From: Candidatus Iainarchaeum sp.
Lineage (GTDB): Archaea > Iainarchaeota > Iainarchaeia > Iainarchaeales > DTGL01
Length of the DNA: 10,584 bases
Direction: 5' to 3'
Assembly (NCBI GenBank): GCA_038886995.1
Contig: JAWALG010000031.1
Coordinates: 1-10,584, forward strand
The number at the start of each line of letters is the position of its first letter. Within the stretch, counting starts at the first letter, position 1. The notes below the pieces were generated by a model. It saw only the letters and a program-made list of their open reading frames with translations. It was not told the origin of the DNA and did no database searches. A program made the position numbers and the translations under genes. Shown here piece by piece: positions 1,947 to 10,584 of this stretch.

Positions 1947-3242
1947 TTAAGGATAAAACCTGTTTAATGTCCTGGGGAAAGGCACGACATCCCTTATGTG
2001 CTGTGCTTTTGTAACCCATGCAGTAAACCTATCAAGGCCTAAACCAAAGCCAGCATGCGGAACTGAACCATAACGCCTCAAATCAACATACCAGGCGTAT
2101 TGCTCTGGATTAAGGCCTTCTTCCTTCATCCTCTGCAGCATTTCCTTAAGCTCCCAAATGCGTTCGCCAGAGCCAATTATTTCACCATAGCCCTCTGGAG
2201 CAAGCACATCGCAGCAAAGAACATGCTTATCATCTTCCGGATCTAGGCGGTGGTAAAATGGCTTAAGCTCTCTAGGATAATGTGTCACGAGAAGCGGCAC
2301 TTTCCGGTCCTTTGTAATTTCCCTCTCCTCTTTTTCGCCGAAGTCGGTAGCTCCTTTGAGGTGTGGAAACCTTTTTTGCACTATTTTAAGAACTTCTTCA
2401 TAACGCATTCTGTCATATTTCTTATAAGCGCTTGGCTCAAGTGTCTTTGGGTCTCTGCCTAGTGCCTTAAGTTCCTTTTCATTCTCTTCAAGTACAGCAC
2501 TAACCATATAGCGAACCATGTTCTCCTCTATATCTAAAAGCTCTTTAAGGCCTATCCAAGGGAATTCTCCCTCAGCATGCCAAAACTCAGTGAGATGCCT
2601 GGTTGTTTTGCTCTTTTCTGCACGGAAGCTAGGCGCTATTGTATAAACATTTCCTAAGGAATACATAACAGCTTCTAGGTAAAACTGCGAGCTTTGTGTA
2701 AGGTATATCTTCTTTCCAAAATAGGGCACTTCAAATAACGTCGAGCCGCCTTCAACCATTCCTGAAACAAACATTGCGCCTTGCGTTTCATAAGCGTTTA
2801 ATTCTTTTCTCATAAACTCCCTAAAAGCCCTAAAAACAGTGTCTCTCACCTTTAATGCATCTCTCATCTTTGCACTCCTCAACCAGAGATGCCTAACATC
2901 AAGGAGGAACTCTGTTGAAAAATCTTTGTGTATGGGAAATTTCTCAGCAAGCCCAATTATCTTAAAATCATCAATTGACAGTTCAACTCCATGCGGTGCC
3001 CTTTCGTCCCTGCGCAATTCACCAGAAAGCTCAACACTTGACTCTATCGTTGCTTTGGAGCATTCCTTCCAAAGTTCTTTGCTTACTTTTTCTGAGTCCA
3101 CAACGCATTGCAACTCTGATGATTCATCACGCAACAGGAAGAATATTTTTCCTTTATGCTCGCGCATCCTCTTTACCCAGCCACGAATCCTTGCCTTTTG
3201 TGGAACTTTCTCGATGGCCTCAGAAATCTTGATAAACTCCAT
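1947..3242 (-). CDS. asnS: Asparagine--tRNA ligase (class IIb), 431 aa
   Basis: N-terminal OB fold (IRGWV..R...K.FF.LRD), RHLWLRS, YLTQSSQFYLE, motif 2 FRAEKSKTTRHLTEFW, GYGEIIGSGER, motif 3 YGSVPHAGFGLGLDR. Start is ATG 3242 (MEFIKIS) with SD GGGGT 6 nt upstream; the 56 extra codons in the ORF track are not synthetase-like. Confidence 0.96.
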   Translation of the reverse strand: MEFIKISEAIEKVPQKARIRGWVKRMREHKGKIFFLLRDESSELQCVVDSEKVSKELWKECSKATIESSVELSGELRRDERAPHGVELSIDDFKIIGLAEKFPIHKDFSTEFLLDVRHLWLRSAKMRDALKVRDTVFRAFREFMRKELNAYETQGAMFVSGMVEGGSTLFEVPYFGKKIYLTQSSQFYLEAVMYSLGNVYTIAPSFRAEKSKTTRHLTEFWHAEGEFPWIGLKELLDIEENMVRYMVSAVLEENEKELKALGRDPKTLEPSAYKKYDRMRYEEVLKIVQKRFPHLKGATDFGEKEEREITKDRKVPLLVTHYPRELKPFYHRLDPEDDKHVLCCDVLAPEGYGEIIGSGERIWELKEMLQRMKEEGLNPEQYAWYVDLRRYGSVPHAGFGLGLDRFTAWVTKAQHIRDVVPFPRTLNRFYP

Positions 3243-3248
3243 AAAAAT

Positions 3249-3300
3249 ACCCCTTATAATACACTCAATGTGGTTTAATAATAAAAATGTTAACTTTTTG
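3249..3300 (-). promoter_or_regulatory. asnS promoter (BRE/TATA-like) and SD
   Basis: The (-) strand reads CAAAAAGTTAACATTTTTATTATTAA, then SD GGGGT (3253-3249). The 12-mer AACATTTTTATT (3291-3280) recurs identically upstream of the beta-CASP gene (8059-8048). Confidence 0.55.
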
Positions 3301-3321
3301 CTTAATCCTGCGTTGTCTTGG

Positions 3322-4305
3322 CTACGGCGAATATATACCAGGAACTTTTGGAAATGCGGCTGCATGCCAAACTGCTTCGAGACCGCAGAGGTATCTTGTG
3401 AACCTTTCAATACCTATGCCAAAGCCAGAAGAAGGCGGAACGCCTTTTTTTAAAATTTCTAAATACCATTTAAAATCTTCAGGGTTCAGAGATGCTTCTC
3501 TCATTTTTTGCATCACTTTTTTAGCATCATGTTCCCTTTCACTTCCAGAAATCGCTTCACCATAGTCCTCGGGGTAAATAAGATCAAAATCAACCAGCGC
3601 ATCACAATTTTGTTTCTCATAGAAGCCCCTTGAGCCCAATGGATAATCTGTTATCCAAAAAAAACCACCAAAGATTTTGGACAAGAGTTTCTCACCATCC
3701 CAAGGAATCTCAGAGCCATATGCAAACTCAAGCCCTTCTGAGGAAAGCACATAAAATGCCTTTGCGTAGGTTATTTTCTTGAAAGGCCTCTTTGGCTTTC
3801 TAAGTTTTTGCCTAAAATAACTCAGCGCATCTTTGCACTCTTTCTTTAACCTTGAGATGCAGTAGCAAAGCATCTCTTCAGCCAGAAAAATTACATCATC
3901 ACGGTTATAGTAAGCGGCTTCGAGATCAAGCTGCGTAAATTCAGCTAGATGCCTTTTTGTTGCAATGCTCTCTAAAGGCTCTAGACGTATGTTTGGTGAG
4001 AAAGAAAATATCTTATCAAAAGCGGTGATTGCAAGCTCCTTATGCAGTATCATGCTTATTGTCACTTTATATGGCCTGCCATAGAAGTCAATAATAGCAG
4101 TACCGGCACCTCTAATACCAGTATCTGTGCAGCTGGAGATTATTGGCGGCCTAAGCTCAACAAAACCCTTTGACCTAAGAAACTTGTTTAGGTAAAAGCA
4201 AGCTTCAGATTGCACTTTTAAAGCCATTTTTGTCTGCTCTTGGCTGAAATAAAGGTGCCTTTTTTCAATCTTTTCAATCTCCTCACTTGAAATGAAAAGA
4301 CCCAT
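3322..4305 (-). CDS. asnA: Archaeal-type asparagine synthetase A (AsnRS/AspRS catalytic-core paralogue lacking the anticodon-binding domain), 327 aa
   Basis: Family signatures PIISSCTD, SMILHK, FSPNIRLE, RHLAEFTQLDLE, YGEAISGSERE, SSGFGIGIERF and FPKVPG; no OB fold. Start ATG 4305 preceded by SD-like GAGTGG. Confidence 0.9.
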   Translation of the reverse strand: MGLFISSEEIEKIEKRHLYFSQEQTKMALKVQSEACFYLNKFLRSKGFVELRPPIISSCTDTGIRGAGTAIIDFYGRPYKVTISMILHKELAITAFDKIFSFSPNIRLEPLESIATKRHLAEFTQLDLEAAYYNRDDVIFLAEEMLCYCISRLKKECKDALSYFRQKLRKPKRPFKKITYAKAFYVLSSEGLEFAYGSEIPWDGEKLLSKIFGGFFWITDYPLGSRGFYEKQNCDALVDFDLIYPEDYGEAISGSEREHDAKKVMQKMREASLNPEDFKWYLEILKKGVPPSSGFGIGIERFTRYLCGLEAVWHAAAFPKVPGIYSP

Positions 4306-4315
4306 AAAGACCACT

Positions 4316-4333
4316 CGCCTTTTAAAAAAGGCG
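4316..4333. promoter_or_regulatory. 18-bp inverted repeat CGCCTTTT-AA-AAAAGGCG between divergent asnA and Lrp genes
   Basis: Perfect 8-bp arms seen directly, AT-rich TATA-like centre, 10 bp upstream of the asnA start. An operator or promoter role is inference. Confidence 0.55.
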
Positions 4334-4380
4334 CATAGCACAGGCCTGCCATTAACAACTGTTTTCACAGGATAAAAAAG
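4331..4380 (+). pseudogene. Out-of-frame remnant of the Lrp/AsnC helix-turn-helix
   Basis: 4331-4366 reads AHSTGLPLTTVF in one frame and continues as HRIKK-MEKEGII in the -1 frame. Joined, this gives the Lrp recognition-helix pattern. The frame of ATG 4381 has a TAG at 4336. Confidence 0.75.
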
Positions 4381-5445: not shown

Positions 5446-6195
5446 CTAAAACTCTAAAGCAAAAAGGTCATGAGCAACATAAACCTTTCCATTGTAAATT
5501 GACTTTACAATTTTTTTTAGGGGCTCTGACTCAACTGCTGGATAAAAATGTGTGAGCATCAATGCTTTTGCCTCTGCTTCTTTTGCAATTTTTGCGCATT
5601 GCATAGAAGTCATGTGTTGCGCAGAGCCAACTGAATCTGGGAACGAACAATCTGCAACAAGCAGGTCTGTATTCCTACCAAGGGCAACAAGATTTTTAGT
5701 GTAAGCAGTATCACCGGAAAAAGTAACGCTTTTGCCATGCGCCTCTAACCTATAGCCAATGGTGTTTTCATGGGCCATCTGCAATGACTTTACCTTAAAG
5801 CCAGGCACAACTGTTGTGGTATTTTCAAGCTCTTTAGTTATTATCCTGAAATTTGCCTCTTTCAGAATTGGGAAGGCGCTAATTATTTTTTCTATGAAGT
5901 CATTTAGGCCTTTTGGGCCTAAGATGTTTATTTGTGCAGAACTCCTTACATCACCAAATTTTTGCACCACAATCTTATAAGCCAAAAAGGCCGCAAGGTC
6001 TGATGAGTGGTCTGGATGATAGTGTGTTAAAAAAATGCTGCCTATGCTTAAGACATCAGTGGCCTTTTTAAGGTTCAAAAAAGATCCACTGCCTAAGTCA
6101 ACAACTGCCTTTGCTTTTTCAGATTCAACCAAAAAGCCCGAGCATGCCCTTGTGCCTGAGAGGATTGCACCAGAGCCAAGCACTGTTACCTTCAT
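5446..6195 (-). CDS. MBL-fold metallo-hydrolase, RNase Z/ElaC-like (short form)
   Basis: VLGSGA...RACSGFLV, THYHPDH (HxHxDH), MAH, SGDT, HMT, LTHFYP. It has ADCSF where RNase Z has HEAT and no obvious exosite, so rnz is not assigned. ATGA overlap with the upstream gene. Confidence 0.85.
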   Translation of the reverse strand: MKVTVLGSGAILSGTRACSGFLVESEKAKAVVDLGSGSFLNLKKATDVLSIGSIFLTHYHPDHSSDLAAFLAYKIVVQKFGDVRSSAQINILGPKGLNDFIEKIISAFPILKEANFRIITKELENTTTVVPGFKVKSLQMAHENTIGYRLEAHGKSVTFSGDTAYTKNLVALGRNTDLLVADCSFPDSVGSAQHMTSMQCAKIAKEAEAKALMLTHFYPAVESEPLKKIVKSIYNGKVYVAHDLFALEF

Positions 6196-6881
6196 GGTAC
6201 AAAACCAGCCGTATTTTTATTATATGCATAATGTGAACAATTTTTATTAATTGGGCATTCGCTGCATAAAGGCCTTTTTTTGCAGAAATTCTTACCTAAG
6301 GCAACAAGAAGCGCATGAAATTCATTGTAAAGAGCAGCATTTTTTGGAAGGTTTTTCTCAAAGAACTCTTTGAGTTTTTCCCTATTCTTGAACCTTATGC
6401 CAAATACTCTAAATATTATTCGCTCAGTGTATGCATCAACTACAAAAGTTGGCTTTTCTGCAGCGTATAAAATTATTGAGTCCGCAGTTTCAGGGCCTAT
6501 GCCCCTTATAGAAAGAAGCTCTTCGCGCAGCTCTTTGATTTGTTTTTTTAGGAATGAATTTAGGTTGCCTTTATAGTTGCGCATCACATAATGGCAAAAT
6601 GCCTTTAAGGTGGCCGCTTTCTGGTTATAATAACCAGCACTCCTGATAAGATTGGCAAGCTCCCTTTCTCTCATCGAGTTAATTGCTTTAATATTAAGCT
6701 TCCTTTTTGTTTTCAATACACATATTGCCATTTCAACATTTTTCCAAGAAGTGTTTTGGGTGAGTATTGCACCAACGCAGATCTCGAACTTTGTTTTTGC
6801 TGGCCACCAGTGTTGCTCACCAAAAATTTTCATGAGTTTAGAAAAAAATTTTTTTAATTCATGAGAGCTGCATTGCTTCAT
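6192..6881 (-). CDS. Endonuclease III-related HhH-GPD protein with C-terminal 4Fe-4S motif (COG2231-like)
   Basis: WWPAKTKFEICVGAILTQNTSWKNVE, GYYNQKA, HhH LLSIRGIGPETADSI, FVVDAYT, EFHALLV, CKKRPLCSECPINKNC. Glu replaces the lyase Lys of true Nth. Confidence 0.9.
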   Translation of the reverse strand: MKQCSSHELKKFFSKLMKIFGEQHWWPAKTKFEICVGAILTQNTSWKNVEMAICVLKTKRKLNIKAINSMRERELANLIRSAGYYNQKAATLKAFCHYVMRNYKGNLNSFLKKQIKELREELLSIRGIGPETADSIILYAAEKPTFVVDAYTERIIFRVFGIRFKNREKLKEFFEKNLPKNAALYNEFHALLVALGKNFCKKRPLCSECPINKNCSHYAYNKNTAGFVP

Positions 6882-6900
6882 AAGAAAAAGTTCCTTATAG

Positions 6901-6934
6901 AAAAGCTTATTAATAAGTTTTTACTTTTATAAAA
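6901..6934. promoter_or_regulatory. Palindromic, probably bidirectional BRE/TATA promoter
   Basis: AAAAGCTTATT|AATAAGTTTTT (6901-6922, one mismatch; core CTTATTAATAAG perfect) reads as A-rich BRE plus TTATTAA on both strands. A second palindrome TTTTATAAAA lies at 6925-6934. The (-) box is about 28 bp from ATG 6881 (leaderless geometry). Confidence 0.6.
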
Positions 6935-6962
6935 ATATAATATTTTGAAAAGGGGTGGAAAA

Positions 6963-6992
6963 TTGCCAGCAAAGAAGAAGAAGAAGAAATAA
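6963..6992 (+). CDS. Candidate 9-aa lysine-rich micropeptide MPAKKKKKK
   Basis: TTG CCA GCA AAG AAG AAG AAG AAG AAA TAA. SD GGGGTGG (6952-6958) 4 nt upstream, TATA upstream, T-tracts downstream. No expression or homology evidence. Confidence 0.5.
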   Translation: MPAKKKKKK

Positions 6993-7006
6993 AATGATTA
7001 GCAAAA

Positions 7007-7039
7007 TTTTCTCTTTTTTATTTTCTTTTTTCTTCTTTT
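7007..7039 (+). terminator. Oligo-T/pyrimidine tract, archaeal terminator-like, on (+)
   Basis: TTTTCTCTTTTTTATTTTCTTTTTTCTTCTTTT begins 15 nt after the micro-ORF stop. Confidence 0.5.
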
Positions 7040-8024
7040 ATTTTTCGCAGTCCCAAATTGTTTTTTGGTTTGAATCAGTGTCAAGCTGCTTTGCGCTAAT
7101 TCCAAATCTGTGCCTTATGTGCTGTGCAAACTCTTTTGAAAAACCGTGTGTTGTGTAAACTTTCTTCGCACCGCATTCCTTTACATATCTTATGAGCTGG
7201 TCAAAGTCAGCATGGTCTGAAAGAGGAAATATTTTATCAAAGCAGCCCTTGTAAGGCCAACCGCTTGCTTTCGCACTCGAAACCCTTTTGCCAATGGAGT
7301 ACTCTATTGCTTGAAATAAGTGTGTGCTACACAATGACGGCGGCAATATTAGCACTTGAGAATCGCGAAGGTTGTGGTCAAGCTTGTAGTAAGTGCCAAG
7401 CTTGATTCCAAAGTCCTCATAAACCTTGTTGTTCTCATATATCTTCTCGTGCACTATTGGCGCTATGCCTAAGTACTGATTTGAAAATGCGGTAAGCTCC
7501 TGGGCTTTTCCCAAGGCATAGCCAGAGAGCACTAAAAAATGACCTCTTGCAAGCTGCTTCTTAGCCCAAAAGGCAAAATCTTCATACGCCTTTTCCCTCT
7601 CAGGGAAAACATATTCTGGCAAGCCAAATGTTGTCTCTATTACTAAGGTATCACATTGCAGTATTTCTGCGCCTTTTGTTATTAGCGAGTCCTGAAGTTT
7701 AAAGTCAGATGTTATTGCAATGCTTTCATCACATTCAATGTAAACCTGGGCTGAGCCAAGTATATGGCCAGAGTTTCTAAGCGAAATACCTAATGATCCA
7801 AGAGCAATTTTCTCGCCTAGGCATAAAGGCCTTTTCTTTGCAAAAAAACTCTTTTCCTTTTCAATTAGCTTAAGCGTTGCTTCTGAGCCAATGACAGAGC
7901 CCCTTGAAGCAAACACATGGTCTGCATGTGCATGCGTAACTATGCTGTGCTCTGCTGAATTGCAGTCAACTGCAAGATTAACGCCGTCGGAAAGCAAAAG
8001 GCCTTTTCTCCAAAAAATATCCAT
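7038..8024 (-). CDS. MBL/beta-CASP family nuclease (COG1236-like), 328 aa
   Basis: THAHADH, SGHILGSAQ, TSDF, motif A IETTFG, GYALGKAQE, motif B LSDHADF, motif C THG. Confidence 0.88.
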   Translation of the reverse strand: MDIFWRKGLLLSDGVNLAVDCNSAEHSIVTHAHADHVFASRGSVIGSEATLKLIEKEKSFFAKKRPLCLGEKIALGSLGISLRNSGHILGSAQVYIECDESIAITSDFKLQDSLITKGAEILQCDTLVIETTFGLPEYVFPEREKAYEDFAFWAKKQLARGHFLVLSGYALGKAQELTAFSNQYLGIAPIVHEKIYENNKVYEDFGIKLGTYYKLDHNLRDSQVLILPPSLCSTHLFQAIEYSIGKRVSSAKASGWPYKGCFDKIFPLSDHADFDQLIRYVKECGAKKVYTTHGFSKEFAQHIRHRFGISAKQLDTDSNQKTIWDCEK

Positions 8025-8180: not shown

Positions 8181-8212
8181 GTATGCATTTTTTATATGCG
8201 GGGCTGAGGCAT

Positions 8213-9310
8213 ATGCAAGACGCGCCTAAAGAACTTGTTGGAAGGTGCATAGAGCGTTTATCCTACTTACAATTAAAAATGCGCGGCTCAAACTGGGCTG
8301 AGCTTTCCTCAAATGCTTTTGTGAGGCAAGCACAAGGTGCTTTAGAGGAGCTTGAGGAAATTGAAAAGATTCTTTCCGGAATTTCAAAGGAAGCAAAAGA
8401 GCCAAAGGAGCACGAGTTTGAAGACATAATAAGGGAGCACCGCAAGCTGATAACAACACTTAAAAGGAACATAGAATATGAGCAAAACAAGATCGCGAAG
8501 GATCATCGCATTGCGCCGCCAAACCCAGAGCTTTTTGCCTCGCTTCAGCAAAAAGTACTTTCACTAATGCTGAGGACAAGGTTCTTCATGGAGCGCCTTA
8601 TGCTACATATTGGGCGCAAGGAAACTTCAGCTGTGGGAAAAGTAGAACAAGGCAAGCTACTTGAATTGCTTGAGCAAAAAGAACGTGAGCTCCAAGAACT
8701 GAAAAGGAAGTATGAGGATGTGAAAAAGAGCGTTTTCTTTAGCATTGAGGAAAAAAGCGCTGCTGACCTTGAACAGGAGCTATCACAAATAACGCTCGCG
8801 TTTGAAAAAGAAAAAAGGAAGCTTGAGGAGACATTCGCGGATTACAGGCACAAGATTGCTTCATTGCAGTCAGAGTTTATGCAGCTTGCTGACAGGCTTC
8901 ACGAAACGCAGAGGCGCTTTGATGTCTTTTGCGAAAAAAGCTCTGAGTTAGTGCATTTGCTAAAAAAGGAGAGAGATTTTGCTAAAAAGCTTGTGTTAGA
9001 CATTGAGGCAGAAGTAATGGAGCTCAGGAATACGTACAGCAACGAATTGCTTAAGCTTGAACAAGCCAAGCTTGAGGCAAAGAAAAGCGCTGAGAAGGAA
9101 TATGAGGCAAGGATAAGGGCCTTAGAAGACGAAATAATTGCAAAAGAAGAGCTTTTGAAGCATTTTAGGGATATGGCTGCAAGCACTGATTCTGAGAGAA
9201 AAGAGCTTAAAGAAAGGATTGCCTTCTTGAACGCGGCCATGGCTGCGAGGGAAAAAGAGGAAAAAGCAAGAAAAGAAGGCAAAAATATAAAAAAGGAAAG
9301 AAAAGAATAG
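8213..9310 (+). CDS. Long alpha-helical coiled-coil protein of unknown function, about 365 aa
   Basis: E/K/L/A/R-rich heptads throughout, no proline after IAPPNPE, no Walker A motif and no TM segment. Start 8213 is preceded by GGGGCTGAGG; ATG 8183 is the alternative. Confidence 0.8.
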   Translation: MQDAPKELVGRCIERLSYLQLKMRGSNWAELSSNAFVRQAQGALEELEEIEKILSGISKEAKEPKEHEFEDIIREHRKLITTLKRNIEYEQNKIAKDHRIAPPNPELFASLQQKVLSLMLRTRFFMERLMLHIGRKETSAVGKVEQGKLLELLEQKERELQELKRKYEDVKKSVFFSIEEKSAADLEQELSQITLAFEKEKRKLEETFADYRHKIASLQSEFMQLADRLHETQRRFDVFCEKSSELVHLLKKERDFAKKLVLDIEAEVMELRNTYSNELLKLEQAKLEAKKSAEKEYEARIRALEDEIIAKEELLKHFRDMAASTDSERKELKERIAFLNAAMAAREKEEKARKEGKNIKKERKE

Positions 9311-9319
9311 TTTGCTAAG

Positions 9320-10584
9320 TTATCCGTTGTTGTAGTAGGTTGTATATCCCCTGTAAGGGTAACTTGTACCACTATATGAGTAAGAGGTATAGCTTGGGTA
9401 GTAAGTGCTTGAACTATTTGTGTATGTAGCGTATGAGTAAGTTGGCTTGTAGCTAGAGTAGGTGCCTGTGCTGCTATAATTACTTGGATAAGAGTATGGT
9501 GTGTATGATGTATATGAACTGTTGTATGAATAGCTTCTTGATGTTGGTGAATAATAACTTGACGAGTAAGAGTAGCTGGAGTAACTATTTTGATATGTTG
9601 GATATGATGAGTAACTACTATTGTAAGTGGTAGCTGTTGATGTAGTGTTTGTTGAGCTCTTTGAGCCAAAGCCAAAGAACCTTGCTATTCTTGAGAGCCA
9701 GCTCCCGGAGCTGCTCGAGGAGCTTGAATTACTACTATTGCTGCTTGAATATGTTGTTGCCCCCATCGAAGAATTATTGGCTGTAGATGTTGTCTTTGAC
9801 TCTACGATTGATGTAAGCCCTGTACTCTGCGCATAATAGTATGCCTGACTTGCGTATACAGGCCCTTCCGCATTGATTGGCTTGCTAGCAATCAGCTTAC
9901 CTCCTTGATATGCTTCAACAATTATTGGCGCACTTGAATCAGCAGGTGCGGCTAAAACATATTCTATTCCAGAATTGTCTCCTGAAGATGAGCCAACCTT
10001 GTTGTATTCACAAAGGAATGTACCGTCAGCCCTCTGCTCACAATGTGCTGAAGGCCCACAAATCATTGTTGCTCTAGGAACGTCTTCGCACCAAAACATC
10101 AGGTAATGTATGTATATATCAGGTCCTATTTTGGGGTCGCAAAATCGCGGAGTTCCCACTATTCTTCCTTCGGTGCATATCCTTGTAATGCACTTGTTAT
10201 AATAAGTCACACCGAAATATGTGAACTGTGGGAAACATCCAAGTTCGCACTTTGCGTAGTTTCCACCTTTAAATGGATTTGTCTGCCCACCTTCAACCGT
10301 ATAGGCAAGCTGCAAATAGCCAGTGTAGAATTGCCCTCTCAATGCACGCTTGATCTCATCTTTTATAGAGGGGTCGTTCTGCGGCTTGGACTCAATCGCA
10401 CTGAAAAGCCGCACAAAGTCCTGGTTGAGTATCTTATTTCCCTGAAGGTCAGTAAAATACTCGTGCATCTGATTTACGTCATAATAGCAAACAGGCGTTG
10501 CAAGCTCAACCCTTTGTGCAAAAGCACCGTTGGAAAATAAACCAAAGTATACTGCCAAAATCAAAGAAAAAGCAAAAAACTTTT
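9320..10584 (-). CDS. Secreted/cell-surface protein with Cys-rich region and Ser/Tyr/Thr low-complexity tail, 5'-partial
   Basis: The frame is open to the window edge: KFFAFSLILAVYFGLFSNGAFA|QRV is a signal peptide with an A-x-A site. It has 10 Cys in the N-terminal half, a Ser/Thr linker and a Tyr-rich C-terminus. Confidence 0.82.
   Translation of the reverse strand, partial: KFFAFSLILAVYFGLFSNGAFAQRVELATPVCYYDVNQMHEYFTDLQGNKILNQDFVRLFSAIESKPQNDPSIKDEIKRALRGQFYTGYLQLAYTVEGGQTNPFKGGNYAKCELGCFPQFTYFGVTYYNKCITRICTEGRIVGTPRFCDPKIGPDIYIHYLMFWCEDVPRATMICGPSAHCEQRADGTFLCEYNKVGSSSGDNSGIEYVLAAPADSSAPIIVEAYQGGKLIASKPINAEGPVYASQAYYYAQSTGLTSIVESKTTSTANNSSMGATTYSSSNSSNSSSSSSSGSWLSRIARFFGFGSKSSTNTTSTATTYNSSYSSYPTYQNSYSSYSYSSSYYSPTSRSYSYNSSYTSYTPYSYPSNYSSTGTYSSYKPTYSYATYTNSSSTYYPSYTSYSYSGTSYPYRGYTTYYNNG

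Follow-up and report, generated by a model that had tools for sequence, protein, structure and literature searches.

We consider it reasonably likely that a 156-nt gap between two minus-strand genes of a Candidatus Iainarchaeum genome (positions 6882-7037) harbours an independent micro-gene for the nine-residue peptide MPAKKKKKK, that this is one of two paralogous copies in the genome, and that the micro-gene functions through its peptide, which would be a soluble polycation with RNA, ribosomes or DNA as binding partners. The window, by which we mean the whole 10,584-nt stretch analysed here, is contig C31 of the source assembly (865,833 bp in 38 contigs, 88.6% complete, 40% G+C). A stand-alone translated micro-gene appears to be the best reading of the gap, and this reading rests on comparison: among relatives, the Shine–Dalgarno motif (SD), spacing, start codon, frame and stop codon persist, and the rest varies as coding sequence. 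That the micro-gene functions through a polycationic peptide is our further inference.

A preliminary description of this DNA had claimed a full plus-strand expression cassette in the gap between the two minus-strand genes, and the sequence contains exactly that (Table 1). A 4-nt spacer separates the SD from the TTG start codon. Two parallels drawn at the time within the window can also be read directly from the sequence: suhB has the same geometry (GGTGG, 4 nt, ATG), and the HD gene has AGGTGA followed by a TTG start. The oligo-T tracts at the far end of the cassette extend into the convergent beta-CASP-type gene, covering its stop codon (7038-7040) and final codons.

Table 1. Features of the cassette, its flanking genes and the second copy (positions refer to the window unless another contig is named).
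Feature	Position	Strand	Detail or basis
HhH-GPD glycosylase-type gene	6192-6881	-	ATG at 6881; domain match
A-rich stretch with palindromic TATA-like box TTATTAATAA	6901-6915 (box 6906-6915)	both	sequence
SD GGGGTGG	6952-6958	+	core GGTG 6954-6957, that is, -9 to -6 from the start
Micro-ORF MPAKKKKKK (copy A)	6963-6992	+	TTG 6963-6965; CCA GCA and six Lys codons 6966-6989; TAA 6990-6992
Oligo-T tracts (T6, T4, T6, T4, T5), likely archaeal terminator	7007-7052	+	sequence; family-wide T5+ enrichment
328-aa beta-CASP-type gene	7038-8024	-	weak RMMBL match
Micro-ORF MAAKKKAKKKK (copy B)	contig C21:11402-11446, locus L046	-	pattern scan

The SD geometry of the micro-ORF is the modal one of its genome and lies above chance. 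A census of 587 stop-to-stop frames of at least 200 codons from the same genome shows G, G, T and G peaking at -9, -8, -7 and -6 upstream of first start codons, exactly where the GGTG of the micro-ORF stands. GGTG precedes a start codon by 4-16 nt within the first 40 codons in 167 of 575 long frames, compared with 25 of 513 internal control sites. The GGGGTGG heptamer alone is unspecific, with 32 copies in the genome, only four of which precede an ORF of at least 60 aa. The combined pattern GGTG-N3-8-start-N3-18-(AAR)4-stop has two matches in the 866-kb genome, both of them poly-Lys micro-ORFs, and none in the reversed control.

Orthologous loci were retrieved with the beta-CASP-type protein, which yielded five same-genus genomes in which both flanking genes are adjacent. 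Three of these (G002, G004 and G001) keep the cassette at the syntenic site with GGGGTGG, the 4-nt spacer, TTG, the reading frame and TAA, a constancy that supports the self-contained micro-gene as a predicted entity. The encoded peptides are MPAKKKKK, MPAKKKKKK and MAKKKTKKKKK, at flanking protein identities of 79%, 67% and 60%, respectively. Compared with the genome of the window (G000), the ORF of G004 shows three base changes, all synonymous (CCA to CCG and two AAG to AAA), and that of G002 shows two AAG-to-AAA changes and the deletion of exactly one codon. These three genomes thus differ only synonymously or by a whole codon, which bears out the synonymous AAA/AAG variation with frame conservation that the preliminary description had proposed looking for. 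In G001, residues differ too, and the 75-nt flanks have fallen to background identity (0.47 upstream and 0.48 downstream), yet the cassette persists.

The element is absent from the other two syntenic relatives, G003, which has a 78-nt gap, and G005, which has a 436-nt gap of other sequence; it can therefore be lost, or dispensed with. In relatives that keep the element, we did not see the pattern that had been named as contrary to a gene, a purine tract retained with the SD, start or frame lost; the two of five that lack the element have lost it as a whole. A metagenome scan with the beta-CASP-type protein returned three distant loci.

Two other frames in the gap were considered and rejected. 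An upstream in-frame TTG at 6945 would give a 15-aa form, and in G004 it is followed directly by TAA, so that 6963 is the conserved start. A 67-aa alternative-frame ORF at 6955-7158 on the plus strand has no SD of its own and comprises about 32 codons in G004 and about 19 in G001. This ORF is Arg-rich at its start and Phe-rich thereafter and extends in antisense orientation into the beta-CASP-type gene; the T-rich sequence probably gives rise to it as an artefact.

Copy B, on another contig of the same genome, carries the SD GGGGGTG, with a TATA-like element AATTAAATA upstream and dense T-tracts downstream. It sits directly behind a co-directional MacB/FtsX-type permease gene and has a convergent nitroreductase gene on its other side. 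Its syntenic sites encode MAAKKKAKKK in G002 and MAKKKKAKKK in G004, and the differences consist of a start switch from GTG to ATG, synonymous changes and whole-codon indels. When the genome was scanned for SD-led K/R-rich ORFs of 5-55 aa, only short noise and copy B were returned; copy A appeared only in the list of ORFs without an SD, as the 15-aa form from TTG 6945.

The palindromic TATA-like box has its centre approximately 29-30 nt from the glycosylase ATG. It is kept in G002 and G004 and also stands beside the glycosylase start in G003 and G005, both of which lack the micro-ORF; because it persists without the micro-ORF, it serves the glycosylase gene at least. The BRE/TATA element that the preliminary description assigned to the plus-strand cassette is therefore present but not exclusive to the micro-gene, as it fits the divergent glycosylase gene as well. 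The box is likely to be a shared divergent promoter, or else primarily that of the glycosylase gene. By hand count, the TATA centre stands 51-55 nt ahead of the micro-ORF start codon, both in copy A (G000 and G001) and in copy B. Archaeal promoters have a usual spacing between TATA box and transcription start, which would place starts at approximately 6936 on the plus strand, giving the micro-gene an SD-containing leader of about 26 nt, and at approximately 6884 on the minus strand, giving a near-leaderless glycosylase mRNA. A palindromic TATA-like box (TTATTAATAA or CTTTATTAATA) also lies between micro-ORF and divergent gene in the Aenigmatarchaeota loci L073, L085, L093, L107, L113 and L114, and its recurrence in unrelated lineages suggests bidirectional promoters.

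Downstream, a T5+ run occurs within 80 nt of 28 of 33 archaeal micro-ORFs (median 18.5 nt), compared with 186 of 660 positions drawn at random from these loci. Searches against Rfam found no family at the window micro-ORF nor in 14 loci of the family described below, and the predicted transcript folds no better than shuffled sequences (z of -0.51 for the plus strand and +0.05 for the minus strand), leaving an RNA-only reading unsupported. A search of sequencing runs listed no RNA run containing the locus, and one RNA run from the same study showed nothing on the stretch, with 6964-7045 masked as a repeat. AAG takes five of the six lysine codons here and AAA one, compared with an AAG share of 43% genome-wide and 55% inside lysine runs. 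The longest A-run is mostly 5-6 nt across the oligolysine family, and the preference for AAG is weakly consistent with avoidance of slippery A-runs.

By its sequence, the micro-ORF is a member of a family of predicted genes of the form M-(A/P)-(A)-K5-8, 7-11 codons long and scattered through DPANN archaea and some CPR bacteria. A strict pattern applied at the family level (13 genomes) matched only the syntenic sites of G000, G001, G002 and G004, with none in the control. At the order level (196 genomes), a looser pattern gave 42 matches against 17 in the reversed control, and reading by eye identified seven of the 42 as complete in-frame ORFs of M, A/P/T and K only: two in G000 and one each in G001, G002, G004, G168 (MAAAKKKKKKK) and G170 (MAAKKKKKKK). 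In the class of the window (215 genomes), a strict pattern gave 12 matches against one in the control, the same seven being in frame, so that six genomes carry the element by this pattern. A second archaeal class, entered by way of a locus from the species-wide scan described next, yielded 31 strict-pattern matches in 24 of 301 sampled genomes, with one in the reversed control, and all 31, read by eye, are in-frame ORFs of 7-11 codons (for example, MAKKKKK to MAKKKKKKKK, and MAAKKKKKK).

We then scanned 185,579 species genomes with the pattern GGTG-N3-8-start-(Ala/Pro)-Ala-Lys5-N0-9-TAA, in which the AAR codons are preset and the frame of the stop is not forced. This gave 47 loci. Complete ORFs of 8-11 aa account for 35 of them (by length, 3 of 8, 20 of 9, 10 of 10 and 2 of 11 aa), mostly MAAKKKKKK; the remaining 12 belong to longer ORFs of 14-268 aa. 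Because the pattern leaves the stop frame free, the proportion in frame (35 of 47) and the sharp peak at nine codons are informative. By record title, 27 of the 35 short ORFs are archaeal and of DPANN type; they derive from 22 assemblies, with two copies in five of these, and the records are labelled Aenigmatarchaeota, Woesearchaeota, Nanoarchaeota, Iainarchaeum or simply 'archaeon'. The other eight are bacterial by record title, mostly Patescibacteria/CPR. The same pattern found 13 matches in AT-rich DNA of viral contigs, none of which is a short ORF. Within one genome, the identical peptide MAAKKKKKK recurs in unrelated contexts.

The window copy shares the traits of this family. It has a GGTG-type SD 3-8 nt from an ATG, GTG or TTG start (the spacing in the family is mostly 5-7 nt), an in-frame stop right after 5-8 Lys codons in which G is confined to third positions, and an intergenic location with a TATA-like box upstream and an oligo-T run downstream. 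The relatives found through synteny, for which no pattern was used, show the same form of a Lys run followed by a stop. As similar ORFs of 7-11 codons occur in other contexts and phyla, the micro-ORF is very unlikely to be a mere by-product of the beta-CASP terminator.

Two side observations concern the size and arrangement of family members. One archaeal record (L110) has tandem micro-ORFs, MAAKKKKKK and MAKKKKK, approximately 100 nt apart, each with its own GGTG. Nine loci from archaea and bacteria (L070, L072, L082, L087, L090, L092, L095, L102 and L116) have K/A-rich ORFs of 25-79 aa starting with M(P/A)AKKKKK, and these longer ORFs may grade in size into the micro-ORFs. One of them, K/A-rich and 42 aa long, gave no significant match when used as the query of a homologue search.

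Thirty of the 35 short ORFs lie outside any ORF of at least 80 aa. Their neighbours vary by lineage and include a bifunctional-nuclease-domain gene with AlaX, an HTH_3 protein, Nre and a lysine-aminomutase-like radical SAM gene, among others. Of the 25 archaeal loci with a downstream ORF, 17 have it in convergent orientation, a count in which many contexts are orthologous and hence non-independent. No modifying enzyme of the ThiF/MccB type was found among the 11 ORFs of the window and the 39 of 64 neighbour ORFs of family members that were scanned, and copy B alone follows a MacB/FtsX-type permease gene.

Six bacterial loci, mostly in CPR-labelled records, resemble one another in organization. 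A 10-codon ORF encoding MAAKKKKKKK lies between serS and secA in L100, L109 and L111, the three for which both neighbours were scanned or read, and L094 has serS upstream and a SecA-like N terminus downstream. A conserved palindromic hairpin, UACCAAUUGAUCANUUGGUA, is found 3′ of the ORF in five of the six (L074, L094, L100, L106 and L109; not L111), and in all six a GC-rich terminator stem with compensatory changes follows. This bacterial element may yield a small regulatory transcript or serve as a leader to secA.

In the scheme we propose for the archaeal micro-gene, plus-strand transcription would start from the TATA-like box at the position given above. Translation from the SD and TTG would yield MPAKKKKKK, from which the methionine would probably be removed to leave PAKKKKKK with a charge of about +6, and termination at the T-tracts would give an RNA of roughly 80-115 nt. 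As the peptide is too short to fold and there is no constant gene partner, its simplest activity would be electrostatic binding to RNA, ribosomes or DNA. Oligolysine could thereby be the genetically encoded equivalent of polyamines, or a parallel to very small basic ribosomal peptides of the eL41 kind.

Polyamines and Lys/Ala-rich H1-like or protamine-like DNA-binding proteins are small flexible polycations that neutralize the charge of nucleic acids. Polyamines differ from the micro-ORF product in being enzyme-made metabolites, and H1-like proteins in being several-fold longer; a likeness to the latter lies in the K/A-rich ORFs of 25-79 aa that share the N terminus of the micro-ORF in the wide scan. 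No member of the spermidine synthase or SAM decarboxylase family turned up in the genome (88.6% complete), which keeps arginine decarboxylase and two deoxyhypusine synthase genes (C27:1588-2445 and C7:12024-12935). In the 301-genome sample, strong full-length spermidine synthase matches occur in none of the 24 carriers and in 32 of 277 non-carriers, a difference that is not significant and is uncorrected for kinship. The polyamine link is a trend only. Carriers are organisms with minimal biosynthesis, which is circumstantial evidence for a polyamine-like role. A bolder conjecture, tentative and on balance doubtful, is that DPANN and CPR cells carry the shortest conserved stand-alone genes yet seen (7-11 codons), with free oligolysine as a polyamine substitute or a minimal cofactor that binds rRNA or the ribosome.

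Two known systems come close in particular respects. One published account describes eL41 as the smallest and most basic archaeal and eukaryotic ribosomal protein (25 aa in yeast), rRNA-binding, non-essential and uneven in archaea; it sits at a subunit bridge as a defined helix of mixed Arg and Lys (PMC9932298). There it contacts helices 27, 44 and 45 of the SSU rRNA. The micro-ORF product would resemble eL41 in being tiny, extremely basic, ribosomally made, unevenly present and easily missed in annotation; it differs in being a plain oligolysine of 9 aa, about a third of the length of eL41, and in that its ribosome binding is hypothetical. The 25-position Pfam model of eL41 (PF05162, Ribosomal_L41) has no match in the whole genome at E <= 10, and it stays below the cut-off in every control genome too. 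The mccA gene is a seven-codon gene for the microcin C precursor with its own SD; its short transcript ends in a terminator, carries one ribosome and is translated (PMC4231749). Its likeness to the micro-ORF, an ORF of fewer than 10 codons with its own SD, provides a precedent for size and expression. The difference is that mccA heads an operon of peptide-modifying enzymes, whereas none was found beside the micro-ORF, nor any other constant neighbour, and the compositions are unrelated.

A small toxin of a type I toxin–antitoxin system was considered and rejected, because a peptide made up of Pro, Ala and six Lys lacks any hydrophobic stretch to span a membrane. Text and keyword searches, with supplements and subscription journals outside their reach, found no published description of an oligolysine micro-gene or of a gene-encoded free hexalysine.

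Leader peptides and minigenes are also very short ORFs with runs of a single codon type, and they control a downstream co-directional gene in cis through alternative RNA structures. A corresponding explanation of the micro-ORF, which we regard as unlikely, is that the act of translation or the small RNA matters and not the peptide: the element would sense lysyl-tRNA or the state of the ribosome through its Lys codons, act as an RNA stabilized by a bound ribosome, or be an antisense RNA to the 3′ end of the convergent gene. Its single-codon-type run is typical of leader peptides, the CPR ORF between serS and secA is followed by the conserved hairpin and by a terminator stem with compensatory changes, and the frequent convergence of the downstream ORF in archaea (17 of 25 loci) also speaks in its favour. 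However, there is no co-directional downstream gene to regulate here or in most archaeal loci, the T-tracts follow close behind the stop, and the convergent partners vary by lineage, so that there is no common antisense target. Unlike in a leader-peptide attenuator, the next gene is convergent, and the transcript has no structure above that of shuffles (fold z of -0.51). The Lys-sensing leader, an option raised in the preliminary description, fits poorly here because no co-directional gene lies downstream.

We consider it quite improbable that the ORFs are near-neutral sequences, born recurrently from A/T-rich terminator regions and perhaps expressed, without a selected function. The complement of oligo-T reads as lysine, an SD and a start codon arise easily in small AT-rich genomes, and the ORFs usually lie at the 3′ ends of convergent genes. 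The sequence has low complexity, the lengths of the Lys runs vary, and the distribution is patchy (three of five syntenic relatives, and 6 of 215 and 24 of 301 genomes, counted with strict patterns in the latter two). Because the complement of an oligo-T terminator consists of Lys codons, repeated independent origin is possible, and the pyrimidine complement of the Lys run may also help to terminate the convergent gene. Against neutrality stand the cassette shared by G000 and G001 within flanks that have diverged to background identity, the likewise conserved copy B, and the length peak at 9 aa (20 of 35). The second archaeal class is in frame throughout (31 of 31), whereas none of the 13 AT-rich viral matches is short, and MAAKKKKKK is identical in unrelated contexts of a single genome. 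That there is no gene at all, the purine run being the complement of a minus-strand terminator of the beta-CASP-type gene, the TATA box belonging only to the glycosylase gene, and SD, start and stop coinciding by chance, seems very improbable: T-rich pyrimidine tracts do follow the beta-CASP stop on the minus strand, the box is correctly spaced for the glycosylase gene and persists without the micro-ORF, and GGGGTGG is unspecific, but relatives share the SD, its spacing, the start, the frame and the stop, copy B is conserved too and follows a permease gene of the same orientation, and the family spreads across phyla.

If the preferred reading, a translated micro-gene with a functional oligolysine product, is true, the family lies below the length floors of gene callers and protein databases and is hence invisible to them, and it would nevertheless be conserved over large parts of the DPANN archaea, occur in CPR bacteria and set a new lower size limit for conserved stand-alone genes. 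Minimal cells would then meet some of their demand for nucleic-acid counter-ions through translation and not through metabolism. Genes shorter than 12 codons can be found with comparative scans that look for an SD, a start codon and a short homopolymeric run of codons.

The profile scan of the window took in 11 ORFs, several of which are of interest apart from the micro-gene. The ORFs at 8183-9310 on the plus strand (375 aa) and at 9320-10582 on the minus strand (at least 420 aa) have no Pfam match. Two adjacent minus-strand ORFs, at 1947-3410 and 3322-4368, are of the class-II aminoacyl-tRNA synthetase type (Pfam tRNA-synt_2), and their longest frames overlap by 89 nt. The second of these has no OB anticodon-binding domain; it could be an enzyme of the AsnA kind or a paralogue.
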